A stretch of 64,000 nucleotides of DNA from a virus. Shown here in pieces: positions 35,843 to 64,000 of this stretch; position 1 is the first letter of the stretch; each line of letters starts with the position of its first letter. The translations under genes were made by a program, and so were the position numbers. The DNA lies in the IMG/VR virus record IMGVR_UViG_3300043410_000542, positions 22,258 through 86,257 of that record, one strand, 5' to 3'. Under the pieces are notes generated by a model. That model did not search any database and was not told where the DNA came from. It saw only the letters and a program-made list of their open reading frames with translations.

Positions 35843-38536
35843 ATGGCTACGATTGTTGTTTATGGCGGTGGTTTTCAGCCGTTTCACGTAGGTCATTTAT
35901 CTAGTTACCTACAAGCAAAGAAAGCATTCCCTAATGCCGCTTTATATGTTGCTGCTAGTAACGATACTAAGCAACGTCCTATCCCGTTCAAAGATAAACA
36001 ATTCTTAGCACAGCAAGCTGGTGTTAAGGATCCAATGGTCGAGACTAGAAATCCTATCAACCCAGTTGAGATTTTAAGTCAGTACGATCCAAACAAAGAT
36101 GTGTATATCATTGTTCGCAGTGAACGTGATCCTATGCCATATACAAAGAAAGATGGTAGTCCTGCATATTATCAGCCATATGTTCCGGGCGAACCAATGC
36201 AACCTTTCAGCAAACATGGTTATGTGTTTGTGACAAAGAAGCACACGTTCATGGTCGGTGGACATGAAATCTATTCAGGTACTCAGGTGCGTGACATGTA
36301 TACTAGTGCAAATGACAAAGGTAGAATGGAATTGATCCATGAACTTTATCCTAATAGCAAACAACAACTAACAATTAAGAAAATGCTAGACAAGTATTTG
36401 GCTGCAGGCCCAATAACTACAGGAAGTGCTGTGTCTAAACTAAAACAAAAGAAATTAGCGGAACATATTAAGAAGATTCGTCCTCTGTTGAAAGAAGCTA
36501 CAGGTGAACAAAAGTTAAAGTTAATGAAACTTATGAAATCTGCTTTAAATGAGAATAGAATCATGGATCGTAACGCATTGATTAATGCTTACTATGTTTC
36601 TACAAAAGGTGACCGTCACAAAGTTGCAGAGAAGATTCCCTATTATCTATTAGACAGGCTAGTGGGGTTATTGACTAAGAAATACAATATCACAATGAAC
36701 GATATTGAAGTTCGTCCTGCCGACAAGAATCAATATCGTAGAACACACCAGCCTGAATTAGCAGAGAAGAAAGAAAATGATATCGGTGACGAGTTCACAG
36801 ATCCAACTGCTAAACGTGCATTAGACTTAGCTAAACAACATTATCCGGGTTCCAAGTCTAAACAAGAAGCGTTTATTAAGTTTGTCCAACGTTCATTAGC
36901 TCACGCCGAGCAAGATGATAGACAACAGGATCAACAGATTCAACGTTTAGAACAAGAGTTAGCACAGATTAAACAAGCGTTGTTGAATCAACAAGGTGTT
37001 CAAGAAACAGCATTGCAAGGTCAAGATGATTTAGATGCAAAACGTCAATCACTACAGCAGATGGAGCTTGAGCCTGGTCATGACAAAGAAGCTATTCGTC
37101 AACGTAAGTTAGACTTAGATAGAGAAGCACGTGCCAAGAACTTACAAGAGTTCGCAGTAGATGACAACAGTGGTGACAGTGAAGATGCATTCTTCAAATA
37201 CGCCAAAATGTGGTACAATGGTGACTTGCAAGTACAACAACAAGTTGAACAAATCTTAGCTAATGCTGGTTGGGAAATCGGTGAATTAGAATCAGAAGAA
37301 GGTGGCGCATTCATCGTTCAATCTGGTGATGAAAATGGTGACACTTACCTGGGTTGGTCAGCAGAACAACTTCAAGGTTTAAATGAGTTCGCACCGAACG
37401 GCTTTGATGGATTTGAAGATGACAATAGAGTACCGATGCACTTTGTCGTTGAAAAAGAATTGTATAACCGTCGTAGTAAGTGGAAGAAGTCTAGAGATGC
37501 TGATGGCGTTATCTTATTTGCTACTAAACAACAAGCAATTCAAGCCGCAGAAAAGTTCAACAAGCTAGATCCAAATCGTGAATTCGCTTACGGTGGGACA
37601 CAAATGGTTCATGTAGATGATGAAGATTTAGATGAAGGTTTCGACAAAGAAGAATTCCGCAGACACATGAAAGATTTGGAAGCACGTGAAGAATTACGCA
37701 AGACTGATCCAGTAAGTGCAAAAGCATTAGACTTGCGTGGACAACTGCCACAACAATCTAAAAAGAAACCAGAAGATGATTCAATGAGCATCAATGATCC
37801 ACGTCATCCTGGCTACTCTTATACTGAGATAGGGCATCACAAAGTTGACGAAGGTGATGTAGTTCAATTTCCTAAGAAGCATCGCGGTGATATAAGTGAC
37901 ATGCACGAATGTCCAAAGTGTGGCGGAGACTTACAAGGCGGCAAGTACATGGGGCATCAAGTTCAAGTATGTATGCCATGCAAGCAAGTATATCTTCCAC
38001 CTAATAGTGGTATTGACCAACAGGGCAATAAGATTAAAGAAGCTATCGGTCGTAGAGGTATTCTTAAAGGCTTAGGTGCAGCAATGGCTGCAGGTGCAGC
38101 AGGTAAAGCAAGTGCTATCGCAGGAGCTTTTCCAACACCAAGTCATCAACAAGCTATGTACAAAGCGGCCGCAGATAGTAACGCTGCCCAAGCTCGTGCT
38201 GATGCAGCCGAGAAAGCAAAGCGTGATGCACAGCGTTTGAAACAAGGTACAGCCGACATTGAAAGACTAAACAAAATCAACTATCACGGTGGCAAAGTTA
38301 CTCCTATCAATGCTACATGGGATGGCGACAGTGACTTCATGGATGTAGATGGTACAAAGTACGCTATGGCAAGTAGAATGCCTATCAAAGGTGATGAGCC
38401 TGGCAATATGAAACTTGTATCTACTAAAGAAGGACGTCAAGTTTACATGTGGACACGCAACAGCTTGAAAGGTGTTGTAGGTCGTTACTTCTACCCAGCA
38501 CCAGCAAACGAATCCGACGACTATTTGGACGAATAA
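35843..38536 (+). CDS. Multi-module protein: N-terminal HIGH-class cytidylyltransferase-like domain, about 8 short modules, a Zn ribbon and a Tat-like peptide
   Basis: YGGGFQPFHVGH (HxGH) and SGTQVR; CPKC...CMPC; modules bounded by LNE/LAE/VQE/LQE/LNE/LDE/VDE/IKE. Confidence 0.75.
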   Translation: MATIVVYGGGFQPFHVGHLSSYLQAKKAFPNAALYVAASNDTKQRPIPFKDKQFLAQQAGVKDPMVETRNPINPVEILSQYDPNKDVYIIVRSERDPMPYTKKDGSPAYYQPYVPGEPMQPFSKHGYVFVTKKHTFMVGGHEIYSGTQVRDMYTSANDKGRMELIHELYPNSKQQLTIKKMLDKYLAAGPITTGSAVSKLKQKKLAEHIKKIRPLLKEATGEQKLKLMKLMKSALNENRIMDRNALINAYYVSTKGDRHKVAEKIPYYLLDRLVGLLTKKYNITMNDIEVRPADKNQYRRTHQPELAEKKENDIGDEFTDPTAKRALDLAKQHYPGSKSKQEAFIKFVQRSLAHAEQDDRQQDQQIQRLEQELAQIKQALLNQQGVQETALQGQDDLDAKRQSLQQMELEPGHDKEAIRQRKLDLDREARAKNLQEFAVDDNSGDSEDAFFKYAKMWYNGDLQVQQQVEQILANAGWEIGELESEEGGAFIVQSGDENGDTYLGWSAEQLQGLNEFAPNGFDGFEDDNRVPMHFVVEKELYNRRSKWKKSRDADGVILFATKQQAIQAAEKFNKLDPNREFAYGGTQMVHVDDEDLDEGFDKEEFRRHMKDLEAREELRKTDPVSAKALDLRGQLPQQSKKKPEDDSMSINDPRHPGYSYTEIGHHKVDEGDVVQFPKKHRGDISDMHECPKCGGDLQGGKYMGHQVQVCMPCKQVYLPPNSGIDQQGNKIKEAIGRRGILKGLGAAMAAGAAGKASAIAGAFPTPSHQQAMYKAAADSNAAQARADAAEKAKRDAQRLKQGTADIERLNKINYHGGKVTPINATWDGDSDFMDVDGTKYAMASRMPIKGDEPGNMKLVSTKEGRQVYMWTRNSLKGVVGRYFYPAPANESDDYLDE

Positions 38537-38592
38537 AAATATTTCGTACCCCTCTTTAAAGTGTAAATATTTTCATCTTTAAAGAGGACCAA

Positions 38593-39558
38593 ATGGCAAC
38601 AAAGAAAACAACAGCAAAACCCGCAGCAAAAAAAGCTGCTCCAGTTAAAGCAGCAGCGGCTAAGAAAGCTCCTGCAAAGGCACCGGCAAAAGCAACTAAG
38701 GCTACGAAATCTGTCGAACCAAAGACAGTTCCAGTAGAACGAGTTCAAGAAATTGCTGAACAGGCTGCACAAGAACAACAACAAAAACAGGCTCAACAAG
38801 GGCAAGTTCAAGTTAACGTTGACTTCTTGAAAACAACTAAAGTCCACATTGCAATGCCATGCTATGGTGGCATGTTGACAGAATCTACATTCATGTCATT
38901 CATCAAATGGGCTAACACTGCTCGTCAATTGGGTATTGATTGGACATTGGAAACAATGGTCAACGAATCACTAATCTCACGTGCTCGTAACACACTAACA
39001 GCTAAGTTTTTAGAGCAAGAGGGTGCAACTCACTTGTTCTTCGTTGACGCTGACATTGGTTGGGAGCCATGGCACTTGTTAGTATTGTTGAACCGTGACG
39101 TTGATGTTATCGGTGGTTTATACCCAATGAAGACTATGCCAATCAAGTGGGTAGTTAATGGCTTTGAAGGCGCAGAAGAAGGACCAGACGGTCTACAAGA
39201 AGTATCTAAAGCAGGTACAGGTTTCTTGTTGATGAAGCGTCATGTATTTGAGAAATTGAAGTCTCACCCAGCTGTTAAGCAATACAAGAACGACATTGGT
39301 TTAGATCCAAAGTACGACCAACACTTGAAGACCTACTTCGATACAGCAGTTCGTCAGAATCGTTACTACAGTGAAGACTGGACATTCTGTGAAAACTGGC
39401 GTGACTTAGGTGGTAAGATTTGGGTTGACAAGCGTGTATTGTTACGTCACTCAGGATCTTATGTATTCTGTATGGAGAATCAAACTCACTTGTTGAATAC
39501 AATCGGACCTATGTACGTTGAAGAACAACGCAAACAACAAGGTCAACAACCCCAATAA
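38593..39558 (+). CDS. GT-A fold glycosyltransferase-like protein with histone H1-like N-terminal tail
   Basis: IAMPCYGG, ESLISRARN, LFFVDADIGW (DxD), GTGFLL, SEDWTFC, LRHSG; AKP-rich N-terminus. Confidence 0.75.
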   Translation: MATKKTTAKPAAKKAAPVKAAAAKKAPAKAPAKATKATKSVEPKTVPVERVQEIAEQAAQEQQQKQAQQGQVQVNVDFLKTTKVHIAMPCYGGMLTESTFMSFIKWANTARQLGIDWTLETMVNESLISRARNTLTAKFLEQEGATHLFFVDADIGWEPWHLLVLLNRDVDVIGGLYPMKTMPIKWVVNGFEGAEEGPDGLQEVSKAGTGFLLMKRHVFEKLKSHPAVKQYKNDIGLDPKYDQHLKTYFDTAVRQNRYYSEDWTFCENWRDLGGKIWVDKRVLLRHSGSYVFCMENQTHLLNTIGPMYVEEQRKQQGQQPQ

Positions 39559-39577
39559 TAGTCTACTATTATGACAC

Positions 39578-39612
39578 AATGGTTATCGCGGAAACGTGAT
39601 AACCATTTTTTT
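39578..39612 (+). terminator. Rho-independent terminator
   Basis: AATGGTTATCGCG-GAAA-CGTGATAACCATT followed by T run. Confidence 0.9.
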
Positions 39613-39625
39613 ATATAAATACAAT

Positions 39626-40543
39626 ATGCACTTTAGAGAATTAGAGAACTTTAGCCTGAAAGATGTGGTTCACTTCCATGATGAACTGAATCAGGCCCTC
39701 TTTGATGGCGACCACTTAAACCCTGAAGTCAGAGAGCAACTATTAGTGATTGCTAATGATTTCATGGAACATCTAGGATTACCTGATATCCATGTCCAAG
39801 ACATTACATTGTCAGGATCCAACGCAGCGTACAGTTATACAAGATTAAGTGATATCGACTTGCATTTGCTAGTGGATATATCACAGTTTGAGCATGATGA
39901 CGTTTACCGTGAACTATTTGACGCTAAAAAGACAGTTTACAACGAGAACCATGACATTATCATCAAGGGGTTTGAAGTAGAGTTATACATACAGGATGCT
40001 AACATGCCTGTTATTAGTCTAGGTGAGTACTCAGTATTAAACGATAAGTGGATCAAGTTACCTAGAAAGAGAAAAGCAGACTTTGACCAAGTTGCTACTA
40101 AAGAAAAGTATCGTAAGATTTTCAAACTAGCACAATATGCGTTGAAGACTAGTAATGCAGAGAAGATTACCCGAGTTATCAAAACACTAAAGAAATACAG
40201 ACAAGTTGGATTAGATAAGGCCGGTGAATTCAGCCCTGAGAATCTAGCATTCAAAATATTGCGTAGGAAAGGTACAATCAAAGATTTGTACGAGAAACTA
40301 AGAGAACTACACGATGAACATTTAAGTTTAGCAGAGAATGAACCTGATATCATGCCTGGAATTCAACAAGAATGGCAGATGTATGAATGTTCGGGGTACA
40401 TTCCTAGCGAATCTGAAAAAGACGACCCACGTTGGAAGATGGCACTGTCTGTGGACGTAACCCCACAATCAATCAAAGACAATGCACGTAGATTGGGAAG
40501 TAACATAAAAAGAAACGGCAGACCGCCGTTATTGAGACCTTAA
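39626..40543 (+). CDS. Pol-beta superfamily nucleotidyltransferase-like protein
   Basis: LSGSNAAYSYTRLSDIDLH (GS...DxD) and VELYIQD; exact TATAAATA 4 nt before ATG 39626. Confidence 0.75.
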   Translation: MHFRELENFSLKDVVHFHDELNQALFDGDHLNPEVREQLLVIANDFMEHLGLPDIHVQDITLSGSNAAYSYTRLSDIDLHLLVDISQFEHDDVYRELFDAKKTVYNENHDIIIKGFEVELYIQDANMPVISLGEYSVLNDKWIKLPRKRKADFDQVATKEKYRKIFKLAQYALKTSNAEKITRVIKTLKKYRQVGLDKAGEFSPENLAFKILRRKGTIKDLYEKLRELHDEHLSLAENEPDIMPGIQQEWQMYECSGYIPSESEKDDPRWKMALSVDVTPQSIKDNARRLGSNIKRNGRPPLLRP

Positions 40544-40552
40544 GGAATAAAC

Positions 40553-41020
40553 ATGTCAACTATTTTATATAGACCACCGTCAGTCAATACTAAATTCGAT
40601 CCTGGTTTAGAATACATAGCTCAACACGAACAGCAAACAGTGTTGAATAGTACCACTGCAGCCGGCGATACTAAACAAGGTGTTGTGTTGGAACAAATCA
40701 ATAACGTCATTACAAATATTGTACGTAATGACCCTGCCGATACTGTATTGGACTTGGTTGATTTGAATCTAGTAGAATACATTTTGATTGACTCAAGCGT
40801 AACAGCCACGATCCTAACCGGCGCGCCAATAAATATTGATAGAACAATTCGTTTAGCTCCAGCTGTAACAATGACAGGTAGAAGAATGATTGTTATTAAC
40901 AGAAGTCCTTTCCAACATCTAATTGTACAGGATAGTCAGTTAAATACTATAGTGGTTGTCGAGGGAGAGACGAGTGAAGAAATCTTGTCAGATGGATACG
41001 ATTGGATAGCGGTAAACTAA
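40553..41020 (+). CDS. Hypothetical (fibre-associated) protein
   Basis: AAGGA RBS; C-terminal SDGYDW fibre-type motif. Confidence 0.65.
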   Translation: MSTILYRPPSVNTKFDPGLEYIAQHEQQTVLNSTTAAGDTKQGVVLEQINNVITNIVRNDPADTVLDLVDLNLVEYILIDSSVTATILTGAPINIDRTIRLAPAVTMTGRRMIVINRSPFQHLIVQDSQLNTIVVVEGETSEEILSDGYDWIAVN

Positions 41021-41021
41021 T

Positions 41022-44150: not shown

Positions 44151-44167
44151 TTAAGGAAATAATAAAA

Positions 44168-46426: not shown

Positions 46427-46461
46427 TCAGAGATAACAAATATTAAATAAGGATAAAAACA

Positions 46462-47484: not shown

Positions 47485-47485
47485 T

Positions 47486-52662: not shown

Positions 52663-52744
52663 AATATACTACTTATTTCCATTTCCATCTTGTCTCACAT
52701 TTTAAATCACCGTTTTTTGATAAATATCAATAGGGAGACAACAA

Positions 52745-53494
52745 ATGCCACAAAACAAATATCATTGGACAAGAGACACTGTAGATAATAGAGACCACGT
52801 ATTCGCACCGAGACTAAGTTCTTTGCCTACATCAGTAGACTTACGTAATAACTGTTCTCCGGTTGAAGACCAAGGCGACTTGGGAAGTTGTACAGGTAAT
52901 GCTATTGCAGGTATCATGGAATACTTAGCACGTAAAGCAAGAAAGACTACTGATGTAAGTAGATTATTCATTTACTATCAAGAACGTTTACTTGAAGGTA
53001 CTGTAAATTATGATTCAGGTGCGTACATTCGTGACGGGATCAAGGCAGTAAACAAGTATGGTGTACCTACTGAAAATCTATGGCCGTATGATGTTAGAAA
53101 ATATACATACCGCCCAACACAGGCAGCTTACACAAATGCTGCAACTAGAAAAGCAGTATCATATCAAAAATGCGCTAACTTTGCAGCCGTAAAATCAGCT
53201 CTTGCTCAGGGTTACCCTGTAGTTATCGGGTTTGACGTTTATGAGAGTTTTGAAAGTGACACAGTAGCACGTACCGGTATGATGCCAATGCCTAATAAAG
53301 CACGTGAACAATTGTTAGGTGGACATGCTGTTACAATCGTAGGATATAACGATACTACACAACGTTTCATTGTTAGAAACTCGTGGGGGACAAGCTGGGG
53401 AGACCATGGATATTTCTATATGCCCTACGGTGTTATTCAGGATACTACAATGTCTAGTGATTTCTGGATAATTACTTCTATCACAAACCCTTGA
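52745..53494 (+). CDS. Papain-like cysteine peptidase (C1A)
   Basis: VDLR, DQGDLGSCTG (catalytic Cys), GGHAV (His), VRNSWGTSWGDHGYF (Asn). Confidence 0.92.
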   Translation: MPQNKYHWTRDTVDNRDHVFAPRLSSLPTSVDLRNNCSPVEDQGDLGSCTGNAIAGIMEYLARKARKTTDVSRLFIYYQERLLEGTVNYDSGAYIRDGIKAVNKYGVPTENLWPYDVRKYTYRPTQAAYTNAATRKAVSYQKCANFAAVKSALAQGYPVVIGFDVYESFESDTVARTGMMPMPNKAREQLLGGHAVTIVGYNDTTQRFIVRNSWGTSWGDHGYFYMPYGVIQDTTMSSDFWIITSITNP

Positions 53495-53527
53495 GATAAG
53501 ATAAATATCTTATTAGCGGATATTTTT

Positions 53528-56191
53528 ATGAAAATCAAACACTTACAAGAAAATTTAACCCCTGCATCAACCCCTAGCGTTAAGACTATTCCTCCTGAAT
53601 TCGGTCGTAGCAATGAAATGCTAGAATCAGGTGCAGGTACTACTGGCGCCGGAGCAGTTGCATCAGTATCAAGTCCAGTCGGTGGAATGCAACGTAGAGG
53701 TAAAGGCTCTATGTTTCAAGGTATCAAGACAAGCGCAAAATATCCTAACTCAGCCGCAGTCAAAGAAGAAGCAATGGGGACATTCGCTGCTCTTAAGGGT
53801 TTAAAGACTTGGCAAGTTGTTATTTTCAATAACTACTATGCAGGTAAGTACAGTGACTATCGTGGAAGATACTATTATGTATTAGCAACTAGCCCACAAG
53901 AAGCTAAACAAGTTGTACTAGATAATGCAGATGGCATCTTGCAAGAACTATTAGCAATGAAGTCACACAACGGTAAGAAGATTCTTCCTCGTGGCTCTGC
54001 CGTTCGTATTACATCCGACCGAATTGGTAAGATTGAAGACGGTACAGTTGCAGGTCGTATGAGTACAGCAGGCTTTAAGAAAATGTTTGGTCCACAAGGT
54101 CCTGTAATGGTTAAGCTAAGTGGCGGCGCCGTAGTTGATATGCAGGATCCAGTAGTGCAAGGTAGTGACCTTAAGACTGTAGCTAAAGCTGACTTAGGTA
54201 GTAATTCAATGAATCTACCTAGTGGTTACGGTGATGTTGTTCAACCACAAAAAGTAAGTGAAGAACATTTAGATGAAATCTTTAATCCAACATCAGGCGT
54301 TGCACGTTTTTTAAGAGCAGCGAGTGCATTTGCAGGTGATTACATTCCTGTAGCTATCGGTGCAGCAGGTACATTTGCAGCTACGACCGCGGTATTAGGT
54401 CCAGTAGCAGCGATGATGGCAAGTAGTACAGTTGGTAGTCAAATTCTACAAACAATACAAAATCAACAAAATAAAGTACCAGGTGTTATTCAACAAATGG
54501 TCGAAAAGTATTTCGGTAGTGAACAAGAAGAAGTTGAATTTGCTTTGATTCATGCAAAGGCAGCATTCTTGGGTCAGAGAGAATTTAGATGGAGAGGCCA
54601 ACAATGGCCTGTTACCCTAGAGAAAAATGCAGCAGAAGCAATTGTTGAAAAGAATGATAGATATTGGTTAGAACAACAAGCTCGTCAACAGCAGCAACCT
54701 GCATTTGCCGAAGCTAAGAAGGCTGCTAACACTAAGACGGTAAGACATGCTTTAAGTAAGCGTCCACCGGCTAAACTAAGCGACAAAGAACAAGAAAAGA
54801 AAAAATCTGAATCTGATGCAGCTTGGGAAAGACTAATGGCTTATGCTGCTGCACAGGAAAAAGAAGTAGATGAAGCCAGAGTTGGTAACAGAATGAGCGA
54901 CATTAGTGTTGGTAGTCCAAAGATTGTCAACTACAAAGGTAAAGCAGTGGGTGAAGTTGGTATTGACCACGAACCAAGTCCAGGCAATGGCCCTTATTAT
55001 TGGAAACATTATCTAACTGGTAAGTACATGGTTGGATATGATACTAAACAAGAAGCATTAGCTGACTTAAAACATCTAGTAATGCAAAATGAAGGTCAGC
55101 AAGGTGTGGCGGAAGCAGGTGAGTGGACTAAGTTACCAAATGGTAACTGGAGAAACATGCACACTGGTGCACAACAATCAACACCTCCCAAGACAAAGAA
55201 ACCTCGCAGAACAATGGGACTAAACGCTAGTTTAGAACAACATGCTGATGACAAGATGAAAGAATTAGGTCATAAGTTTAAACCTGTGAAAGAAGGTTCA
55301 GAATCAGACCGCATCCAAGCATTGTATGACAAGCTAGAACGTTTTGAAGAACGTCTAGGTTCTGATGATCCTAGAGTACAAGCACTCAAAGATGAAATTC
55401 GTGGCTTGAAAGATGAGTACAGAGTAGTTGGGCAAAACACTGCAAACTCATTGAGAGGTGTAACAGAAAACTCTATGGCTGATTTCTTTGCCAAAGCAGC
55501 ACAAGAAAAGTTTCCAAATGCTTTAGTTCGTAAGAACGGTGAGACAATTCAAGAACCACCGAAGCGTGAAGTTCCTCCAGCATTGCCGAAAACTCCGGTG
55601 GATGTTCCAGCATTGCAACAACAATTAGTAGACTTAGAAAAGAGATACGAGCAACTAGGTGGTGACTCATGGCAATATGCTGACCGCATGATGGACAGAG
55701 ACCGTGAAGCGCAGCAAGTAGGTCAACAAATTAGGTATATCAAGCAACAACTTGCTAATGCAGGAAATCAACTTGATGAGAAATCAAAGAGCCAGGCACA
55801 ATTCAGAACAATGGCAGCAGTAGCACATAATCCAAAGTTCGCTAAGAAAGTTGGTATCAAGCAATCTGTTGGTAAAGAGTTTCACAAAGCAGACAAAGGT
55901 GTAAACTATAAGTCATTGCCAAAGAAAGTAGATGAAGCTGAAATTTCAGAAGAAATGTTAGCTAGTGAACTATACAAAGATTTCCAAATCTTTAGTAAAG
56001 GCAAAGACAAAGCAATCTCGGGTAAAGCTAAAAGCAAAGACTTGTCAGGTAAACCAAAAGATAAAGAAATCATTGCTAAAGTAACTAAGATGGCAAATGA
56101 AGATAAAGATCCATGCTGGAACAGCTACAAGCAAGTCGGCATGAAGAAAAAGAATGGCAAGACAGTGCCTAACTGTGTACCTAAGAAGTAA
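53528..56191 (+). CDS. Multi-module putative internal head polyprotein
   Basis: MKIKHLQE leader; about 12 short unrelated modules bounded by [LVI]-x-E; ends with DPCWNSYKQVGMKKKNGKTVPNCVP. Confidence 0.65.
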   Translation: MKIKHLQENLTPASTPSVKTIPPEFGRSNEMLESGAGTTGAGAVASVSSPVGGMQRRGKGSMFQGIKTSAKYPNSAAVKEEAMGTFAALKGLKTWQVVIFNNYYAGKYSDYRGRYYYVLATSPQEAKQVVLDNADGILQELLAMKSHNGKKILPRGSAVRITSDRIGKIEDGTVAGRMSTAGFKKMFGPQGPVMVKLSGGAVVDMQDPVVQGSDLKTVAKADLGSNSMNLPSGYGDVVQPQKVSEEHLDEIFNPTSGVARFLRAASAFAGDYIPVAIGAAGTFAATTAVLGPVAAMMASSTVGSQILQTIQNQQNKVPGVIQQMVEKYFGSEQEEVEFALIHAKAAFLGQREFRWRGQQWPVTLEKNAAEAIVEKNDRYWLEQQARQQQQPAFAEAKKAANTKTVRHALSKRPPAKLSDKEQEKKKSESDAAWERLMAYAAAQEKEVDEARVGNRMSDISVGSPKIVNYKGKAVGEVGIDHEPSPGNGPYYWKHYLTGKYMVGYDTKQEALADLKHLVMQNEGQQGVAEAGEWTKLPNGNWRNMHTGAQQSTPPKTKKPRRTMGLNASLEQHADDKMKELGHKFKPVKEGSESDRIQALYDKLERFEERLGSDDPRVQALKDEIRGLKDEYRVVGQNTANSLRGVTENSMADFFAKAAQEKFPNALVRKNGETIQEPPKREVPPALPKTPVDVPALQQQLVDLEKRYEQLGGDSWQYADRMMDRDREAQQVGQQIRYIKQQLANAGNQLDEKSKSQAQFRTMAAVAHNPKFAKKVGIKQSVGKEFHKADKGVNYKSLPKKVDEAEISEEMLASELYKDFQIFSKGKDKAISGKAKSKDLSGKPKDKEIIAKVTKMANEDKDPCWNSYKQVGMKKKNGKTVPNCVPKK

Positions 56192-56192
56192 T

Positions 56193-57650
56193 ATGAAAAT
56201 CAGACAATTAACAGAATCAAATTTACCCGGCGCATTTAAAGGTGTCAAGGTTATGTCACCTGAAGAATTCGTAGGTGCGAGTCAAGAACCGGAAGCTGTC
56301 GAACCAGAACAAGAAGTAGAAGAAGATAAAACCTCACGTGATACAAATCGTTTGTGGCAAATGATTACTGACTATGAGCGTAGAGCTAAAATGTCAAGTA
56401 GCGACATTCGTAAGCAACACTATATGAAGATGGCTAGTGACTTACGTGCTAAGTTGCCAACTAATGACTTAGATGAAGCAACTGCATTGCCAGCGCAACA
56501 ACGTGAATTAGGTGGTCAAGAGTTTCAGGATTACATGAAGCGTATTGTCGGTGCACCTGATATTGACAAGAAGACTGGTAAAGTCAAAGTTGGTAAAGAT
56601 AAAGTTAATAAGAAGACAGGTGAAGTAACACCCGGTGAAGAAAAGTATATCAGTGGTAAAACAAAGACTGACAAGTACAAGATGCCTTATATGCATCGTT
56701 CAAGTGTTGTAACATACTATGACGAAGCAGGTAAAAGATTCCGTGAAGAGGATGTTATCAAAGCATTACAAGTACGTCCTAAGAAATTACTAAAGCAAAA
56801 CGAAAAGATGAAACATTCAAACGGTGCGTTTGAACAATTCTTTAACGTTGGCTTTGCTGCTTTGACAGGTATCGCCGTTGACGAATCTACAGGTAAACTA
56901 GTTATTGTCAACACATGTCCAGGTGCTGGCTCATGTAAAGTTGATTGCTTTGCTATGAAGGGTGGTAAAGTTCAGTTCAAGAATGCATGGTTATCAGATG
57001 GTAAGATTCTTACATATCTATTGAATGACCCAACTGGCTTCTTCAATCAACTAAGTGCTGAAATTTCCGCAGAAGAAAAAGCAGGACAAAAGGGTGACAA
57101 GAAGTTCCCTAATGGTTGGAATGTAACTATTCGTTGGCATGACGCAGGCGACTTCTTTAGTCCAGAGTACTTAGACTTAGCATTGAAGATGGCTGCAAAG
57201 CATCCTAACACTAAGTTCTATGCGTACACTAAGATGGCAGGAGCAGCACTAGCAAAGAAGCCAGCGAACTTCATTATCAACTGGTCAGAAGGTGCTCATA
57301 CTTCACAAGAGAAACAAGTCAAGGCTGCTGATCCTAACTTAGATACAACTAAGAATAGTCGTATCGTTCCAGATAACATGTTCCAAGACTTGTTAGTTAA
57401 AGACCAGAAGGGTAATCTAGTTAAGGGAGCTGCGGGTCAATGGCAAGTTCAACCAGATAAACTACCTGAACTAAAACAACGACTAGCAAAAGCATATCAG
57501 ATTAGCCCAAATAGTATTTTGAGTTATGACGAGTACACAAGTAAGCCTAAAGTTCAAGGTATGAAGTACAACGTTATTGTTGCTCCTGGTGAGGGTGACA
57601 TTAGTGCTAACGATACTAATGTTTTAAGCACATTGTTATTGAGACACTAA
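56193..57650 (+). CDS. Modular protein with C-terminal GP88-like (radical-SAM-related) domain
   Basis: Start at ATG 56193 (MKIRQLTE); TCPGAGSCKVDCFA, IRWHDAGDF, FYAYTK. Confidence 0.7.
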   Translation: MKIRQLTESNLPGAFKGVKVMSPEEFVGASQEPEAVEPEQEVEEDKTSRDTNRLWQMITDYERRAKMSSSDIRKQHYMKMASDLRAKLPTNDLDEATALPAQQRELGGQEFQDYMKRIVGAPDIDKKTGKVKVGKDKVNKKTGEVTPGEEKYISGKTKTDKYKMPYMHRSSVVTYYDEAGKRFREEDVIKALQVRPKKLLKQNEKMKHSNGAFEQFFNVGFAALTGIAVDESTGKLVIVNTCPGAGSCKVDCFAMKGGKVQFKNAWLSDGKILTYLLNDPTGFFNQLSAEISAEEKAGQKGDKKFPNGWNVTIRWHDAGDFFSPEYLDLALKMAAKHPNTKFYAYTKMAGAALAKKPANFIINWSEGAHTSQEKQVKAADPNLDTTKNSRIVPDNMFQDLLVKDQKGNLVKGAAGQWQVQPDKLPELKQRLAKAYQISPNSILSYDEYTSKPKVQGMKYNVIVAPGEGDISANDTNVLSTLLLRH

Positions 57651-57705
57651 ATATGGATAGAACAACATTTGAATTCTATCTAAGATATAAGGGAAATCCA
57701 CCAAA

Positions 57706-58677: not shown

Positions 58678-58692
58678 ATTAAATAGTTATTT

Positions 58693-59538: not shown

Positions 59539-60490
59539 AATTTTAATGTTATTAATGATATGCACTAGCGCACTAGCATGGGAACCAACTAAACCCATCA
59601 CTGTTATTATAGGCAATCAACCCGGCTCAGGTAACGAAATCGGCTTTCGTGCTATTTCAGCAGTAGTCAACAAGACAAACCCCGACGTTACGTTCGTTAT
59701 TGAACTGAAACCTGGTGGTGATAGTGTAGTTGCGATGAACTATATGAATGAAGCTAAACCCGATGGTTACACTGTTGCTATTCCTAGCTATATGAGCACG
59801 TTTGTTACGAATGATATCTGGCAGAAAGACATTAAGAAGTTTCAATATAATAGCTTTACAAACATCATGGGCATGGGAAAGAGTCCATTGTGTATCGTAA
59901 CCAATCCAAACAGTAAAATTAACTCTATCAATGAGTTAGCAGAGTTAGTTAGAACAACAGACAAGCCTATTACGTTTGCAGTAGGTGGCGGCGCACATAG
60001 AATGACGTTTGAGTACTTCATGTTGAAAGCTAAAGGTAACAAGAAGCAAGTCAAATTCACACAATATCCCGGTCCATTACAAGCAGTTACAGCAGTAGCA
60101 AGTAATGCAGGTATAGAATTTGGAATAATGCCTATCTCAGTAGCATTACCTTTAGTTCAAGCAGATAAAGTCAAAGTGCTAGGTATTACAGGTGATAGAA
60201 AGTTAGCAAGATTACCAAACGTAGAACCGATCAGAGTAGGAGGTTCATATATTGATGTGTTCGCTGCCTGGGCGATGGTCTTGCCACCGAACACCCCACC
60301 TGAAATAGTAGAATGGTATAGAAAAACATTCGCTCCGGCATTAAATAGTAATGAAGTAAAGCGTTACTACGAAGAAAACTTGATATTCGTAGACGAGAAA
60401 GAGTTAAACCCAGAAGGATTTATTAAAGGGATTGAGAAATTAAGAGGAGTATGGATTCCTCTGTCTCAGCAAGTAAATCTACTGGACTAA
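59528..60490 (+). CDS. tctC: Tripartite tricarboxylate transporter substrate-binding protein (TctC/Bug family)
   Basis: Signal peptide (ALA|W), PTKPITVIIG..PG, KPGG, AKPDGYT, YPG, PPNTPPEIV. Confidence 0.85.
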   Translation: MITRILMLLMICTSALAWEPTKPITVIIGNQPGSGNEIGFRAISAVVNKTNPDVTFVIELKPGGDSVVAMNYMNEAKPDGYTVAIPSYMSTFVTNDIWQKDIKKFQYNSFTNIMGMGKSPLCIVTNPNSKINSINELAELVRTTDKPITFAVGGGAHRMTFEYFMLKAKGNKKQVKFTQYPGPLQAVTAVASNAGIEFGIMPISVALPLVQADKVKVLGITGDRKLARLPNVEPIRVGGSYIDVFAAWAMVLPPNTPPEIVEWYRKTFAPALNSNEVKRYYEENLIFVDEKELNPEGFIKGIEKLRGVWIPLSQQVNLLD

Positions 60491-60493
60491 GAA

Positions 60494-60581
60494 CACACTA
60501 CCTTAGGACCTTTGCGTTATAAAGTGTGGGCCGGCTGCTGGCCTGAGAAAGCGATTCGCTACCGTGGACTCAAAAGTGAGC
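60494..60581. ncRNA. Candidate structured RNA of unknown class
   Basis: GC-rich intergenic island with several hairpins: CACACT/AGTGTG, GGCCGG-CTG-CTGGCC, AGCG-ATT-CGCT, CTCA-AAAG-TGAG. Confidence 0.4.
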
Positions 60582-60608
60582 ATTTTCCTATTTCTGATAA
60601 ATACTAAT

Positions 60609-61181
60609 ATGAGAGCCAAAGAATTCGCCAACCTTAATACAACATCACATGACGAAGTGGTGCTACAAAAGCTAATCAATAAAGCAAATCTAGGTGATGT
60701 AAAGTCCGCTGTAAAGTTACAGGATCTATTCAAAGGAGCCTTTGGTAAGCCACGTGACTATTGGATCAGAAAGTACAAAAAAGAACTTGAAGAATGTGGC
60801 GTATTCATTTCAGAGGGTGTAGAAACTCCCCAAGACGAACAAAAGATTAAGCACTTTATTGAATGGTCATATAAAGCATTGAACATGCAGGACCCTAAAC
60901 CAAAGTTCCACTTCAGTAGAGACACAGAACAAGCACAAACAGACCATCGTACAGGTATGCACACTGAGGATGGTTCTATTTTGATTTACATTGAGAATAG
61001 AAACTTAGTTGATATCATGCGTACTATATTCCATGAGTTAGTACATCACAGACAGGATCAACTAAACATGATTAAAGATGGGGACAGCTATCCTGGCAGT
61101 CCTATCGAAGCAATGGCAGATATGATGGCTGGAAAGTACATAAAGATTTATGGCAAACAACATCCCGAAATCTTCCAATAA
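60609..61181 (+). CDS. HExxH zinc metallopeptidase-like protein with targeting-type leader
   Basis: Start at ATG 60609 (MRAKEF); RTIFHELVHHRQ...IEAMAD; internal ISE. Confidence 0.7.
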   Translation: MRAKEFANLNTTSHDEVVLQKLINKANLGDVKSAVKLQDLFKGAFGKPRDYWIRKYKKELEECGVFISEGVETPQDEQKIKHFIEWSYKALNMQDPKPKFHFSRDTEQAQTDHRTGMHTEDGSILIYIENRNLVDIMRTIFHELVHHRQDQLNMIKDGDSYPGSPIEAMADMMAGKYIKIYGKQHPEIFQ

Positions 61182-61335
61182 AACACTACAGAAGTTAAGA
61201 GAAGTCCCTGACGATTTATTTGAAGCAGGGAAAGATGATATTGATTTTAAAGCAGAAGTTATTAAAAGACAGTACAAGAAAGATCCTTCAAGTATCTTTA
61301 CTTTGATTAAGAGAATGATAAATGAGAGCAAATGA
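61150..61335 (+). CDS. Small hypothetical protein
   Basis: Fills the gap between two genes, overlapping both ends. Confidence 0.45.
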   Translation: MANNIPKSSNKTLQKLREVPDDLFEAGKDDIDFKAEVIKRQYKKDPSSIFTLIKRMINESK

Positions 61336-62899
61336 ATTCGTCACTGAAATGTTTGAACCCGGTAGAAAGAACTGGGAGTGGGCCCGTCTTGGAACTGACG
61401 AAGTATCTGCTTTTTTCAAAGTAGGTGGTAGAGATTATCTTTGGCAAGCGTTTACGGGGCGTGGTAATCCCAAGAAGTGGGAAATACAATTTCGTTTAAT
61501 AAGAAAGCCCGACACTGACCCTGATGAGTTAGATTTGTTTGGAACAACAGGCACCGGCAATTCAGCGGAAGTAATGTCAACAGCAGTTGATATTACAAGA
61601 GCATTCTTAAAAGAATATGGGCTTGATAGAGTAGAAGAAATTACATTCAATGCTAAAGAAGATAGTCGCATTGGATTATACGCTAAGATGATTAAACGTT
61701 TATTGCCTGGGTGGGACTTGTATAGCAAGAAAGATTCAGTTGATGGTATGGTGTTCTCTCTCACTGACCGCAGAGCATACGACAAGCCTGAAAACAAAAT
61801 TAATGAAGTATTTGAACCTGGCTCTGGTTATCCACTACATTGGGATACTGAATTTGGTCCTGAAGAAATTCACGCACGTGCGTATGATAGACAAGGTCAG
61901 TACATTGACATTCATTTTGTTCCTGTAAGAGACAATATAATTGACATTGAATTCAGTAAGATGGACAACTATGAACTCACTGGCAAAGGTGACGAAATGG
62001 CTATCTTTGCTACAGTAGTTAATGCTATCAGACGATACTTAAAAATGAATCAACCAAAGATTATCATATTCAGCGGTAAAGGTGAAAATCGAGGTGCATT
62101 GTATCAGAAGATGATTAATAGATTAGCTGGACAGTTTGGCTATCAACAGTTTGATACAAGCAAACTAAGCCCACAAGGTCAGTCACAAATAGGTGCTACG
62201 GGTACTAACGTATTCGTATTACGTAAATCATTCAACCAACAAGTCGAAGAAGAAGTATTAGATGAAATGCCTCTTCCCGCTGATTGGGATCAAAGTCAAT
62301 ATGGACCGGGATCATCATTCAAACAAAGATTAGCATACGCATTAGAACGTGCTAAAAAGATCGGCACTGGATCCAGTCGTGTTGCTACTACAATTGAATA
62401 TCAAGGTCGCCCAACAGTATTGAAGATTGCTAAGAACGGAAAAGGCTTGGCACAAAATTCAGTTGAAGCGGACATTTTAAGCGATGGATATGCTAGTCAA
62501 CTTGGTATCTTAATTCCTATTATTGACTATGATGAACAGAATCGTGAACCTACTTGGGTTCACACTGAAATGGCTACTAAAGCTAATGAAAAGCAACTAT
62601 GTAACTTAATGAAGTGTAATTCATTAGGATCATTAGTACGCTATGCTAATGCCATCGCAGGCAAGTATCGTAATGTCACAGCACAGAGTTACCAAGAAGA
62701 AATGATTAACGGCGGTAAATCTGAACGAGACATTGAAACAATGACAGAGTATGCCAATAAACTAGCAGACCTAGCAAACTCGTTTGATGTTGAGTTAGCT
62801 GACTTCGGTAGAGCAGCTAACTGGGGAATATATAACGGTCAACCAGTTGTCATTGACGTTGGCTTTAACAGCAACGTGATGAATCAGTATTACAAATGA
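61322..62899 (+). CDS. Three-module protein: two tandem paralogous domains plus a kinase-like domain
   Basis: VTE|MFEPG and INE|VFEPG modules share TGxG...T.V...F...R..LY.KMI.RL; LDE|MP module has IGTGSSRVA, VLKIA, NSVE, DF...NWG, VIDVG. Confidence 0.7.
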   Translation: MRANEFVTEMFEPGRKNWEWARLGTDEVSAFFKVGGRDYLWQAFTGRGNPKKWEIQFRLIRKPDTDPDELDLFGTTGTGNSAEVMSTAVDITRAFLKEYGLDRVEEITFNAKEDSRIGLYAKMIKRLLPGWDLYSKKDSVDGMVFSLTDRRAYDKPENKINEVFEPGSGYPLHWDTEFGPEEIHARAYDRQGQYIDIHFVPVRDNIIDIEFSKMDNYELTGKGDEMAIFATVVNAIRRYLKMNQPKIIIFSGKGENRGALYQKMINRLAGQFGYQQFDTSKLSPQGQSQIGATGTNVFVLRKSFNQQVEEEVLDEMPLPADWDQSQYGPGSSFKQRLAYALERAKKIGTGSSRVATTIEYQGRPTVLKIAKNGKGLAQNSVEADILSDGYASQLGILIPIIDYDEQNREPTWVHTEMATKANEKQLCNLMKCNSLGSLVRYANAIAGKYRNVTAQSYQEEMINGGKSERDIETMTEYANKLADLANSFDVELADFGRAANWGIYNGQPVVIDVGFNSNVMNQYYK

Positions 62900-63432
62900 G
62901 AGCAAGCGAACTAACTAAGAATAGATGGGCACTAATTGTATCAGACCCTGAGAAACATCAGTGGTCAGATAACCTCATCCAACTCGTTAATAATGCATAT
63001 CAGAATACAAGTCTAGGATCATTCGTTAACTCTGCACAAGAAGTTGCAGCTAGTGATTGGGTGGCATTAGATTGGGACCCGCAACCAGATTTAGATTGCA
63101 CTGTGTTCTATCGCAGAGCAAGACCAAACGAACATTGGACTGGTTATAAGATTCAAGGCATCGGTCATGACGGTAAACAAGAATCAAAACAAAAAGTCAT
63201 TCAACGAGTTAAAGCGTTGTTAGGTAAGCCGGGTACATGGATTGAATCTAGTGACGCTATGGCACGTACATTAGGTAAGCTAGGACTGCAACCTGTTACA
63301 GACGAACAAACATTAAATACATTGTTCCCTGGATCTAACTTAAAGATGTTAGACCAAAATGGTACCTATGAGCGTGATGCAGGTGGCTCACGCATACGTG
63401 AGCAAGTATTCGGAAACCCGGTGACAAAATGA
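62896..63432 (+). CDS. Hypothetical protein with targeting-type leader
   Basis: MRASEL start; ATGA-coupled on both sides. Confidence 0.75.
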   Translation: MRASELTKNRWALIVSDPEKHQWSDNLIQLVNNAYQNTSLGSFVNSAQEVAASDWVALDWDPQPDLDCTVFYRRARPNEHWTGYKIQGIGHDGKQESKQKVIQRVKALLGKPGTWIESSDAMARTLGKLGLQPVTDEQTLNTLFPGSNLKMLDQNGTYERDAGGSRIREQVFGNPVTK

Positions 63433-64000
63433 GAGCAAGAGAATTTATCAACGAAGAAGTCAACCCTGATATTCGTCACTCTGAATTCAAACATGAATTA
63501 GAGATACATGGATTGCGTTATACTGCTGAAACAGACAATAATTCAGGTTACGGTAATCAACTTATCATCAAAGTATACGATGGCAACAAAGAGGTTGCTA
63601 ACGCTGAGTTCTACGAAGAACCACACGACAAAGCATTGATTAGTATGAACACTTGGGTTATTAGTGCCTACCAAGGACAGAATATCGCAACTAACATGTA
63701 TGCTTATGCTAAGATGTTGGGCAATGATATTATGCCTAGCGATACACAAACCGACCAAGGTGAAAGAATGTGGCGCTCTTGGAACCAATCAGGCCAATCT
63801 AAACATATCTTGCCAAAAGGTCAAAAAGGCTACAGAGAACTAGATGAAGACACTGGTACATTCTCTAAAGTAATGACACATGAGACAAGCCCAGAAGCTG
63901 CGGCAATCATTATGAAAACCGGATTCAGACCCAGTCGCACTGGTATCTTCTTTAACGTTGCAGGTACTAACTACAGCGGTGGAGGTTACGGTGGTACAGA
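63429..64000 (+). CDS. Partial multi-module protein: GNAT-like domain, then an ADP-ribosyltransferase-like start
   Basis: Not in the ORF track; read manually: MRAREFINEE...WVISAYQGQNIATNMY...QTDQGERMW...LDE|...HETSPEAAAIIMKTGFRPSRTGIFF; open to the window end. Confidence 0.65.
   Translation, partial: MRAREFINEEVNPDIRHSEFKHELEIHGLRYTAETDNNSGYGNQLIIKVYDGNKEVANAEFYEEPHDKALISMNTWVISAYQGQNIATNMYAYAKMLGNDIMPSDTQTDQGERMWRSWNQSGQSKHILPKGQKGYRELDEDTGTFSKVMTHETSPEAAAIIMKTGFRPSRTGIFFNVAGTNYSGGGYGGT

Follow-up and report, generated by a model that had tools for sequence, protein, structure and literature searches.

The window, the whole 64-kb stretch of DNA analyzed here, is the right-hand part of an 86-kb IMG/VR contig that represents about 25% of a jumbo myophage genome; the phage is described as giant and from freshwater. 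Its site-bearing open reading frames (ORFs) are built as strings of modules, 50-170 aa long, that evolve independently and turn up rearranged in hundreds of related phage proteins. An 897-aa polyprotein (35843..38536, + strand) opens, without a leader, directly with a cytidylyltransferase-like domain (PF01467, residues 6-91), which is followed by about ten small modules. The original prediction had placed module borders on the motif [LIV]-x-E, in this protein at LNE 36545, LAE 36758, VQE 36998 and LQE 37142 (residues 235, 306, 386 and 434) and at LNE 37379, LDE 37628, VDE 37844 and IKE 38033 (residues 513, 596, 668 and 731), with YLDE as the C-terminus; every listed site is present at its coordinate, and the protein ends in DDYLDE (38516..38533, +). 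Putative cuts after residues 207, 218, 308, 436, 481, 515, 598, 670 and 733 (36455..38041, +) each have a homology breakpoint within 5 aa in a set of 18 sequences. No more than 9-42% of its length is shared by any of the 111 homologues, whose parts come in differing order, and the same module can follow different sites: ALNE/NRIMDR here, QVAE/SRIMDR or ELEE/ARIMDR in relatives (the slash marks the putative cut).

The second large polyprotein, of 887 aa (53528..56191, +), comprises about 11 modules of 50-170 aa behind the capsid-targeting-like leader MKIKHLQE (53528..53551, +). It holds 15 [LIV]xE sites, among them all those predicted, and its junction-type sites follow residues 80, 245, 250, 449, 529, 589, 647, 751 and 803 (53759..55936, +). 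Parts of it are matched by 2136 representative proteins, whose best stretches coincide with the module limits. A gene for a papain-like cysteine peptidase (52745-53494; PF00112, E 2.7e-22) lies directly upstream on the same strand.

The smaller proteins, all on the + strand, have borders supported by one to three comparisons each, which is thinner support than for the two large ones. The 485-aa protein (56193..57650) consists of the leader MKIRQLTE, two short modules and a GP88-like domain (PF17338); its homologue in a related contig (L004) matches only from residue 92, a break near LDE95. The 190-aa protein (60609..61181) contains the HExxH motif HELVH, passes no Pfam family cut-off, and is matched by a homologue (L007) from a break at residue 67, adjoining ISE69. 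Both starts are in-frame ATGs with the shared leader, which at 60609 reads MRAKEFANL and has no Glu at the cut position. The 525-aa protein (61322..62899) has the leader MRANEFVTE, two paralogous modules (VTE/MFEPG and INE/VFEPG) and a third module after LDE315; homologues break at 161 (INE162) and at about 303 (VEE310/LDE315), PF22028 covers residues 211-272, and phrog_4301 covers 309-524. The 178-aa protein (62896..63432) matched no PHROGs family, and only its leader-like start MRASELTK, again without Glu at the cut position, makes it a candidate member of the set. Finally, an ORF with the leader MRAREFINE (63429..63998) is open-ended because the contig stops there; a partial homologue (L009) covers its residues 1-131, and LDE140 lies 9 aa from the break at 131.

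The abundance of the motif says little about its role. The original prediction held that a motif frequency no higher than in shuffled sequences would speak against it, and the counts come close to that outcome. Relative to 500 composition-preserving shuffles per protein, the 897-aa protein has 15 [LIV]xE motifs where 9.7 are expected (z 1.9) and the 887-aa protein has 15 where 10.2 are expected (z 1.8), while the remaining named proteins sit at expectation (5 vs 5.6, 2 vs 2.9, 7 vs 7.4 and 10 vs 10.8), the open-ended ORF at 63429 being left out of the scoring. Across the 101 ORFs of the contig, 322 motifs are observed and 295 expected.

The position of the motif is far more informative. Among 18 sequences, 84 of 222 breakpoints fall within 5 aa of an [LIV]xE (36.7 expected), and among 112 mosaic homologues the figure is 515 of 1213 well-supported similarity breakpoints (198 expected, 2.6x), although the p-values for both sets ignore kinship of the sequences. 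Six control motifs in the 112 sequences ([LIV]xD, [LIV]xK, [LIV]xQ, Ex[LIV], [AGS]xE and [KRQDEN]xE) are flat at 0.70-1.21x. Exactly on the Glu of [LIV]xE lie 395 of 4453 unique alignment ends, compared with 87 for the [LIV]xK control. The claim that borders fall on the motif is thus borne out far above chance, and so is the expectation, part of the original prediction, that the ends of module gain, loss and shuffling among homologues would coincide with this motif and not with others. The joint consensus is (Q)(G)-[VLI]-x-E/[GFAS], and modules are exchanged exactly there. Stand-alone homologues consist of one leader and one module, and their leader site aligns with an internal junction of the longer chains. 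In this way TVNE/RINPTG of one such protein (P0183) lines up with HLDE/IFNPTSG in the window, and IVGE/SMADFF of another (P0225) with GVTE/NSMADFF, the cut positions coinciding in both; sites 647, 250 and 751 of the 887-aa protein correspond in the alignments to the leader site, or the beginning, of P0225, P0183 and P0246, respectively. The module that begins at residue 752 has the same start as a free 52-aa ORF of phage BUCT555 and as gp51 of phage 121Q.

Homology borders and local composition suggest that these sites lie in linkers. Of 34 homologues, the module labeled NNYY has a site on its upstream side in 27 and on its downstream side in 22. The motif copy at residue 140 of the 887-aa protein, an interior one, is not conserved as Glu: 7 of 34 homologues have Glu there and 21 have Asp. 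In T4, Asp at the cut position blocks processing (PMC9026906). The "dozens" of products once predicted are about right as an upper bound if all sites are cut, but some [LIV]xE sites, residue 140 for example, sit inside domains.

The commonest linker, QGVAE, is also conserved as DNA. Its 15-nt word, CAAGGTGTGGCGGAA (55100..55114, +), encodes the junction after residue 529 of the 887-aa protein and occurs exactly once in the window (0.07 expected). In other phage contigs the same rare-codon word recurs in frame, with 110 copies in 80 IMG/VR loci, of which 96 read as QGVAE within an open frame of 150 aa or more and 4 lie in the other two frames. GVAE is written GGT GTG GCG GAA in 9 of 15 cases (0.3% expected), GTG and GCG each making up 8% of their own codon sets. 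In-frame module exchange, a part of the original prediction, is therefore real and has a DNA-level signature in the linker word. One could go further and regard the joint as a recombination linker and nothing else, a stretch of microhomology for in-frame cassette exchange in proteins that work uncut, its likeness to a protease site being incidental. The rare codons would fit this, as would the fact that, across 168 unique contexts, conservation reaches no more than about 3 nt beyond the word in either direction and that copies are spaced 50-200 codons apart in frame. We nevertheless consider it improbable, because GVAE accounts for only 82 of 444 junction-supported sites and the others vary at P2 (A 32, D 20, N 14 and K 10%) and P4 while keeping V/L/I at P3 and Glu at P1. 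Freely varying P2 and P4 around a fixed P3 and P1 is, as read from the alignments, a constraint at the protein level. Furthermore, the rule also holds at the end of the N-terminal leaders, a place without any cassette junction, and it marks the major capsid protein (MCP), the scaffold and the protease N-terminus of relatives.

A leader of about ten residues ending in [LIV]-x-Glu begins the ORFs at 53528, 56193, 61322, 63429 and 13269 and another at contig position 11200; a cleavable form is absent from the 897-aa protein and from those at 60609 and 62896. Most family members carry a leader of 8-10 residues ending in the same motif as the module borders. Its strict form is found in 46 of 112 members in one set and 61 of 141 in another, as against 8 of 86 and 4 of 80 among control ORFs. 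Members that open directly with an enzyme domain, as the 897-aa protein does, instead end in a tail of the type DY[LIV][DE]E, in relatives (S/E)DY[LIV][DE]E followed by 0-2 Lys. This tail ends 37 of the 112 homologues, only three of which also have a leader (Fisher p 1e-9, uncorrected for relatedness), and one or the other is present in 88 of 112.

The motif is the cutting rule, I/LxE, of the T4 prohead protease gp21 (PMC12991175, PMC5694885), as had been predicted. None of the protease, capsid and portal genes is in the 86-kb contig, so the link to a head protease runs through relatives. An S77-family protease (PF03420) occurs in three of the five records searched: two of four related contigs, above the cut-off, and 121Q. 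Both positive contigs also hold homologous polyproteins, together with MCP propeptides with 4-5 [LIV]xE sites, protease N-termini with one, and scaffolds of 365 aa with 22 sites and of 328 aa with 15 (6.0 and 4.6 per 100 aa). The one experimental link comes from a phage in culture, phAPEC6: residues 4-60 of its gp161c are 56% identical to residues 752-806 of the 887-aa protein (E 7e-11), and its gp162c starts with the leader MKYNQLQE; both are listed in Table 1 of the phAPEC6 structural (virion) proteome, a table that shows presence, not processing. Asteriusvirus is a distant relative, with a tail tube identity of 28%.

On this evidence we think it reasonably probable that these ORFs are capsid-cargo polyproteins, cut at their joints by a putative prohead protease. 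We propose that the leader, or the tail, would bind the prohead core in the manner of the T4 capsid targeting sequence (CTS), and that a gp21-type protease would then cut after every accessible joint Glu, removing the leader and freeing the modules inside the head. The products would remain with the DNA as internal proteins, and some would pass into the next host on ejection. Cargo would be added or swapped by recombination inside the common linker word, regenerating the word and keeping the frame. Joining modules in this way probably allows the phage to load many cargo proteins into its capsid, to separate them by cutting and to exchange them easily.

Two other routes to cleavage deserve mention. 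T4 gp21 also cuts a loop of a host CD-NTase in the cytoplasm, outside proheads (PMC12991175), so cutting need not mean packaging. Late in infection, free prohead protease or some other enzyme specific for Glu might accordingly cut the polyproteins in the cytoplasm, and the modules would act, unpackaged, in the producing cell; several leader genes do lie among replication genes. The leader, which in shape and position matches a capsid targeting sequence, and the homologues listed in the phAPEC6 virion proteome make this very improbable. Still more doubtful is that the adjacent papain-like peptidase processes the 887-aa polyprotein. It lies immediately upstream on the same strand, as it does in two related contigs (L004 and L006), but it is not found beside the homologues in three others (L003, L008 and L009) and is not seen in the contigs that yield most family members. 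Papain-type enzymes select mainly at P2, and the joint rule, a hydrophobic P3 and Glu at P1, is that of gp21. Counting against the cargo reading itself, the polyprotein-type genes are scattered, some adjoining replication genes, and we found no enrichment of the T4-type late promoter word.

If loaded and cut as proposed, the chains most resemble the T4 internal proteins IPI-III and Alt, in which a CTS of about ten residues ends in hydrophobic-x-Glu (PMC9026906, PMC9958956, PMC7411985, PMC5694885), the protease is of family S77 (here seen in relatives), and enzymes and basic proteins, otherwise unrelated, follow a shared leader. The ten-residue T4 CTS loads foreign proteins (PMC9026906), and Alt is cut at ITE-6 and also near its C-terminus, at LTE-619 (PMC5694885). 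In contrast to these single proteins with trimmed ends, chains of up to about 12 modules here carry the same site at each joint, modules move between chains, the joint has a conserved DNA word, and enzyme-first proteins seem to have the C-terminal tail in place of the leader. Searches against Pfam and PHROGs gave no homology to IPI-III or Alt. Multi-module chains with a protease motif at their joints are, as far as sequence goes, a variation on the T4 capsid-targeting system. The ejection or inner-body proteins of phiKZ, 201phi2-1 and SPN3US are likewise numerous head-loaded proteins of jumbo phages, cut after the Glu of a three-residue motif by a gp21-like protease (gp175/gp245). Their propeptides may hold multiple sites, and for a C-terminal propeptide a role in targeting has been proposed (PMC5694885, PMC10052503, PMC7411985). 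Their motif is A/S/G-x-E, however, which has no real excess at our breakpoints (200 of 1213, 177.5 expected, 1.13x; range 1.13-1.18x), and in SPN3US, as far as that account goes, all cleavages but the protease's own yield cleared N-terminal propeptides rather than retained, shuffled modules (PMC10052503).

The nature of the cargo is less clear. The original prediction saw mostly modifying enzymes among the recognizable modules, and this does not hold: only PF01467, PF17338 and PF22028 pass Pfam cut-offs, 19 of 20 module-sized segments match nothing above a family cut-off, and sequence searches of the PDB gave no match. Kinase-like and ART-like domains could not be reproduced, and of the GNAT-like call there remains a hint in the source name of one homologue (P0108). 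Enzyme domains do occur in homologues, namely HD hydrolases (PF13328/PF01966) and a deaminase (PF00383). Small, basic modules are common, so a role as "effectors" is just one possibility among others. The chains might be loaded and cut just as we propose, yet yield structural products, such as DNA-condensing internal peptides, inner-body or core material, or partly expelled scaffold-like filler, instead of enzymes or effectors for the next host. The strongly basic predicted pieces of the 887-aa protein (residues 9-80, 375-449, 530-589, 752-803 and 809-887; pI 9.3-10.2) and the blank segments agree with this, and an inner body with unassigned proteins is described for 121Q and phAPEC6 (PMC7247149, PMC5646251). 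The T4 core proteins gp22, gp67 and gp68, with several gp21 sites each, are cut to peptides (PMC9958956), and the relatives' scaffolds show the same pattern. Those scaffolds, however, are 3-4 times denser in sites (4.6-6.0 per 100 aa as against 1.7 in the polyproteins) and such cores are degraded to small peptides, while the modules here are kept as domain-sized units across very many proteins, some of them enzymes, and their fast shuffling is more like that of conflict-driven cargo. We regard the structural role as unlikely, if still the strongest competitor to delivered cargo.

Delivered cargo recalls the polyvalent proteins known from phages and conjugative elements (Iyer et al. 2017, PMC5512222). 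These join many unrelated domains per polypeptide with heavy mosaicism, and are predicted to travel in the head and to be delivered along with the DNA. The chains described here fall within that class's two to fifteen distinct domains per polypeptide and have mosaic relatives. Their modules are much smaller, however, and neither MuF, ART, MPTase and DarB-like domains nor other hallmark conflict domains were detected in Pfam and segment searches. For polyvalent proteins the processing proposed there is by embedded zincin-like peptidase domains or autoproteolysis, not at prohead-protease sites at every joint. In the literature searched, with subscription journals and supplements outside its scope, we found no description of protease sites at module joints or of the DNA word.

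If the joints are cut, the T4 head-loading trick has been scaled up to a modular delivery platform in which one gene would furnish the capsid with a dozen separate proteins and new cargo would come without new regulation. This would account for the filling of the head, possibly of the inner body, in Rak2/121Q-like and related uncultured jumbo phages, and would mark a large pool of small proteins as candidates for the earliest phage proteins that host defenses encounter. The linker and leader would also be an easily copied design rule for packing foreign proteins into phage heads. A bolder reading, which we offer tentatively, is that the modules are phage-borne, self-propagating cassettes. The word of about 15-20 nt, (C/G)AG CAA GGT GTG GCG GAA GG, with its codons rare in the phage, would serve both as an in-frame recombination joint for the trade of small modules among many aquatic jumbo and T4-like phages and, once translated, as a head-protease site, while the C-terminal DY[LIV][DE]E tail would direct leaderless chains that start with an enzyme to the head. 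Cutting might then also unmask signals on some products, for example in the module with the Tat-like RRGILKG, which always stands directly after a joint.

Outside the range 35843-64000, the acidic 686-aa protein (14102..16162, +) is a weaker member of the set, with a second kind of start, MDFRSLLQSITDLSE, a site count at expectation and a break near residue 109 (LKE103/VME119). Its homologues in two contigs (L052 and L058) carry GVAE words and have residues 1-109 and about 260-520 in common around a different middle. A nearby 202-aa ORF (13269..13877, +) has the leader-like start MKSLRHYLTE, and its neighbor (12759-13250) starts with MTKKLSELFE.

Borders between the modules of these putatively late proteins fall on the motif [LIV]-x-E, with a putative cut after the Glu (marked here by a slash; we call such a place a site or joint), and this part of the original prediction is upheld by the breakpoints of relatives. 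All of the sites that it listed are present at the correct coordinates, and the C-terminus of the 897-aa protein (35843..38536, +) is indeed ..DDYLDE, but the raw frequency of the motif is a weak signal that lies near that of shuffled sequences. The 897-aa protein has 15 sites against 9.7 in 500 shuffles (z 1.9) and the 887-aa protein (53528..56191, +) has 15 against 10.2 in 500 shuffles (z 1.8), while the remaining named proteins are at shuffle expectation and all 101 ORFs of the contig together hold 322 sites against 295. Motif counting was dropped as a criterion, because the named proteins are not separable from shuffles by count alone.

Scans of IMG/VR provided relatives of the 887-aa protein at 7 loci and of the 897-aa protein at 27. 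The products of these loci are mosaics, in which the same modules appear in altered order or with other partners. After the common first module, which ends in NSAAVKE/, each of four phages has a different module. Conversely, a given module may follow different joints: ARVGNRMS comes after EVDE/ in the window and DLEE/ in the relative L003, AGEWTKLPNGNW after GVAE/ in the window and GVTE/ in the relative L007, xRIMDR after ALNE/, QVAE/ or ELEE/, and FAPGNGDDG after QINE/ or KLDE/.

Alignment of the relatives' homologues, the comparison on which the claim about borders was to be judged, places breakpoints on [LIV]-x-E far above expectation, unlike control motifs. Among 18 sequences, 84 of the 222 clustered alignment-end breakpoints lie no more than 5 residues from a site, against 36.7 expected, and the controls ([LIV]xD, [LIV]xK, [LIV]xQ, Ex[LIV], [AGS]xE and [KRQ]xE) are near expectation. 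A larger set of 112 proteins was obtained by searching 5.8 billion proteins, the query being residues 190-897 of the 897-aa protein. The members of this set are 493-1473 aa long, some are encoded on contigs as long as 360 kb, and the other 111 each share only 9-42% of the query. Counting only all-against-all breakpoints with at least 3 supporting alignment ends, 515/1213 are within 5 residues of [LIV]xE, compared to 198 expected (2.6x), and the six control motifs, which are the fair yardstick since the breakpoint p-values take no account of kinship, are at 0.70-1.21x expectation. In this set the peak of the alignment ends is right at the Glu (395 of the 4453 unique ends, versus 87 for [LIV]xK) and alignment starts peak three residues upstream of the cut, on the motif itself. 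The 444 unique junction-supported sites favor Q at P5, G at P4, V50/L35/I15 at P3, A/D/N at P2, E at P1 and G/F/A/S at P1'.

Modules also occur as genes of their own. With the 887-aa protein as query, a profile-free scan of 1.84 billion representatives gave 2136 proteins at E<=1e-3, and the best-matched stretches begin and end at module limits (residues 81-208, 245-388, 446-529, 520-590, 645-745 and 746-805). Short matches consist of one leader, an N-terminal start of 8-10 residues ending at a site, and one module, and the leader cut aligns with an internal joint of the 887-aa protein. For example, MRADEFTVNE/RINPTG.. of the homolog P0183 aligns with ..EHLDE/IFNPTSG.. of the window, and MKINQIVGE/SMADFF.. 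of the homolog P0225 with ..RGVTE/NSMADFF... The KSKSQAQF.. module, which follows NQLDE/ in the window, is the N-terminus of gp51 in phage 121Q and a free 52-aa ORF in Stenotrophomonas phage BUCT555, where it is located between a portal-like gene and the capsid gene. By eye, 121Q gp22 (L040 18227-18391, 54 aa, annotated as hypothetical), which starts MKKKNIKE/NASSGATSAGAIAS, resembles a leader joined to the first module of the 887-aa protein (..GAGTTGAGAVASVSS..).

Whole-protein MAFFT alignments of the mosaic homologs misaligned modules and were left out in favor of single-module alignment. For the module of the 887-aa protein that contains residue 140 (NNYY module), a site is found no more than 30 residues upstream in 27/34 homologs and no more than 25 downstream in 22/34, and most of the remaining homologs simply terminate at that border. 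The motif copy within the module, at residue 140, has Glu in only 7 of the 34 homologs and Asp in 21; in T4, an Asp where the cut would fall is reported to block processing (PMC9026906).

The joint motif is also that of the canonical head substrates of this phage group. The gp21-type protease family Peptidase_S77 (PF03420) exceeded its cut-off in 3 of the 5 records examined, namely 121Q and the L007 and L030 contigs, which carry homologous polyproteins; it was not found in the two other contig fragments searched, nor on the 86,257-base contig from which the window derives. A gp23-type capsid gene and a scaffold gene adjoin the PF03420 gene. In the L007 and L030 contigs the two scaffolds carry 22 and 15 sites in 365 and 328 aa, respectively, the capsid N-terminal propeptides have 4-5 sites of which the last is LLAE/SSAG.. 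or QIME/ASPT.., and the proteases themselves start with MALYLRE/ or MKLITE/. The reported cutting rule of T4 gp21, I/LxE (PMC12991175), matches the joint motif, and T4 Alt is described as cut at ITE-6 and LTE-619 (PMC5694885).

Immediately upstream of the 887-aa gene lies one for a cysteine peptidase of the papain family (PF00112, E 2.7e-22; 52745-53494, +), which is unusual in a phage. A papain-like gene also lies beside the polyprotein in the relatives L004 and L006. We rejected this peptidase as the processing enzyme of the 887-aa protein because it was not found beside the homologs in L003, L008 and L009 or in the contigs of most family members, and because the joint rule, hydrophobic at P3 with Glu at P1, is that of gp21, whereas papain-type enzymes select mainly at P2.

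The virion proteome of a cultured relative, phAPEC6, includes proteins of this kind. Its gp161c corresponds to 121Q gp51 and its gp162c to 121Q gp50, and the two are listed with 6 and 10 unique peptides, respectively, in Table 1 of its structural proteome (PMC7247149). Residues 4-60 of gp161c are 56% identical to residues 752-806 of the 887-aa protein (E 7e-11), and the N-terminus of gp162c is the leader MKYNQLQE/. The listing shows presence in virions, not processing. Both phAPEC6 (PMC7247149) and 121Q (PMC5646251) have an inner body, the composition of which is given as not known.

Head targeting may be encoded at either end of these chains. The start M-[RK]-[AI]-x-[EQH]-[FL] occurs in six ORFs of the contig, and a strict leader opens 46/112 and 61/141 family proteins against 8/86 and 4/80 ORFs in control sets that themselves include true leader genes. 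Chains that start with a nucleotidyltransferase domain, like the 897-aa protein, terminate in (S/E)DY[LIV][DE]E with 0-2 Lys (37 of 112). The tail and the leader are almost never combined (3 proteins of the 112), and some relatives place a leader before the same enzyme (MKFREFITE/AKTGKVIVVYGGGFQPFH). A C-terminal propeptide has been proposed as the head-targeting signal of the SPN3US protease (PMC7411985), and we suggest, from its sequence and position, that the (S/E)DY[LIV][DE]E(K)(K) tail (window 38516-38533) may be a comparable signal. Leader genes are not limited to a late or structural block, as three further leader-like ORFs lie among helicase- and ligase-like genes to the left of the window (contig 11200-11895, starting MRANEFINE; 14494-15225, MKLTEF; 15227-15550, MRLFEF). 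In the first 50 kb of 121Q, 6/10 leader-like proteins are annotated as structural compared to 20/64 overall, although these numbers are too small to carry weight and one of the six labels was found in the note field only.

The last module of the 897-aa protein (38042-38533, +) starts xxGRRGILKGLGAAMAAGAAGKASA directly after IKE/. In relatives a joint always precedes this RRGILKG module (GLGE/, GVAE/ or MKE/), and one homolog (P0021) has a precomputed TAT_signal Pfam match. A putative twin-arginine-like signal in this module would be unmasked only by cutting.

Exchange of modules appears to have left a mark in the DNA as well. Nine of 15 distinct codings of GVAE in the window and early loci are GGT GTG GCG GAA, where the expected share is 0.3%, GTG and GCG each being just 8% of their codon set in the phage. 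The window holds one copy of the 15-mer CAAGGTGTGGCGGAA (55100) against 0.07 expected, the earlier relatives' loci hold 10, and at least 120 IMG/VR stretches contain it. The 80 loci listed hold 110 copies, 96 of which lie in an open QGVAE frame of at least 150 aa versus 4 in the other two frames, and about 8 look like chance matches in tiny frames. Adjacent copies among the matches listed are mostly 50-200 codons apart and in frame. Across 168 unique contexts, conservation spans about -2 to +17 and none is seen beyond; recombination within a common word would regenerate that word, which would account for conservation that stops at its edges. We infer that the word is a putative trace of exchange at the joint. 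The rule at the protein level cannot follow from this word, since GVAE is present in only 82/444 joints and both P2 and P4 are variable in the rest.

What the modules do is less in keeping with the original prediction, which took the recognizable ones to be mostly modifying enzymes. Only three Pfam families are above cut-off, a cytidylyltransferase-like domain at residues 6-91 of the 897-aa protein, GP88 (ORF 56193) and DUF6934 (ORF 61322), and 19/20 module-sized segments have no Pfam match above cut-off. The segment at 37853-38041 has a weak zinc ribbon match, the 60609 protein has an HExxH motif, and several predicted cut products are very basic. Homologous chains elsewhere contain an HD-type hydrolase, a deaminase and further domains; PDB sequence searches with the modules gave nothing useful on function. 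The packaged-polyprotein interpretation is partly supported, as to module borders on a protease motif and not as to a cargo of mostly modifying enzymes. With moderate confidence, we propose that these sequences are best explained as encoding head-targeted, protease-jointed cargo polyproteins. The mode of working would be like that of the T4 CTS/gp21 system, but T4 has single trimmed proteins where here there would be chains of retained, exchangeable modules. Polyvalent proteins (Iyer et al.) are similar, but their processing is proposed to occur via embedded peptidases, and their hallmark domains were not detected here. The cargo of phiKZ and SPN3US is cut at a different motif, by cleavages that are described as removing N-terminal propeptides (PMC10052503). 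Searches of the openly available literature turned up neither protease sites at module joints nor the linker word.

The source phage is only partly represented. The window spans bases 22258-86257 of an IMG/VR virus contig of 86,257 bases, and a completeness of about 25% (CheckV) suggests a genome of roughly 340 kb. PHROGs identify a tail sheath of 1207 aa and a tail tube about 28% identical to the tubes of PA5oct-like and Asteriusvirus jumbo phages; among the contig's ORFs we saw neither a capsid nor a portal gene. Megablast with the 897-aa gene gave no match in cultured phages, and tblastn with its protein matched the NTase domain only, in 2 records. The T4-type late promoter word shows no enrichment (2 seen versus 4.2 expected). 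Two runs of one freshwater sample contain 94-95% of the sampled words of one 4-kb stretch and may be the source sample of the contig (runs with a small share of words were excluded from the assignment of habitat); no RNA run was among those listed as containing these words.

For 53400-57700 of the window, contigs from the freshwater runs X1 and X2, both of one sample, give a full tiling with zero differences. The module at 55115-55294 has a depth of 188-278 versus 13-70 beside it (4-10x), variant contigs branch near 55131 and 55287, at its two joints, and another contig branches at 54255, adjoining the joint at 54262. This fits the presence of the same modules in other, more abundant phages of the sample. 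Because a more abundant variant of the module is present, no single contig listed spans the joints at 55114 and 55294, and the path of the window there depends on the original assembly. Contig joints with low depth and short sides were left uninterpreted. The M5-M6-M7 order of the 887-aa protein is the same in the independent proteins P0143, P0172 and P0231 and in L003.

Several other genes lie among or near those for the cargo. Between cargo genes are a 2OG-Fe(II) oxygenase (PF13759; 52033-52662, -), a ferritin-like protein (PF00210; 57706-58146) that is syntenic in L003, L004, L008 and L009, and a TctC-type solute receptor (PF03401; 59528-60490). Downstream of the tail tube genes, a 1909-aa ORF (16261-21990, +) with no PHROG match and one [LIV]xE versus 2.6 expected is possibly a tape-measure or hub protein. 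An ORF within 31487-34570 (+) that starts MSDHYQTLGVAR is J-domain-like by eye and is followed by a 759-aa AAA+ protein, which matches phrog_4871 'ATP-dependent protease' (E 4e-238); the two could form a phage chaperone/unfoldase pair with a possible bearing on head loading.
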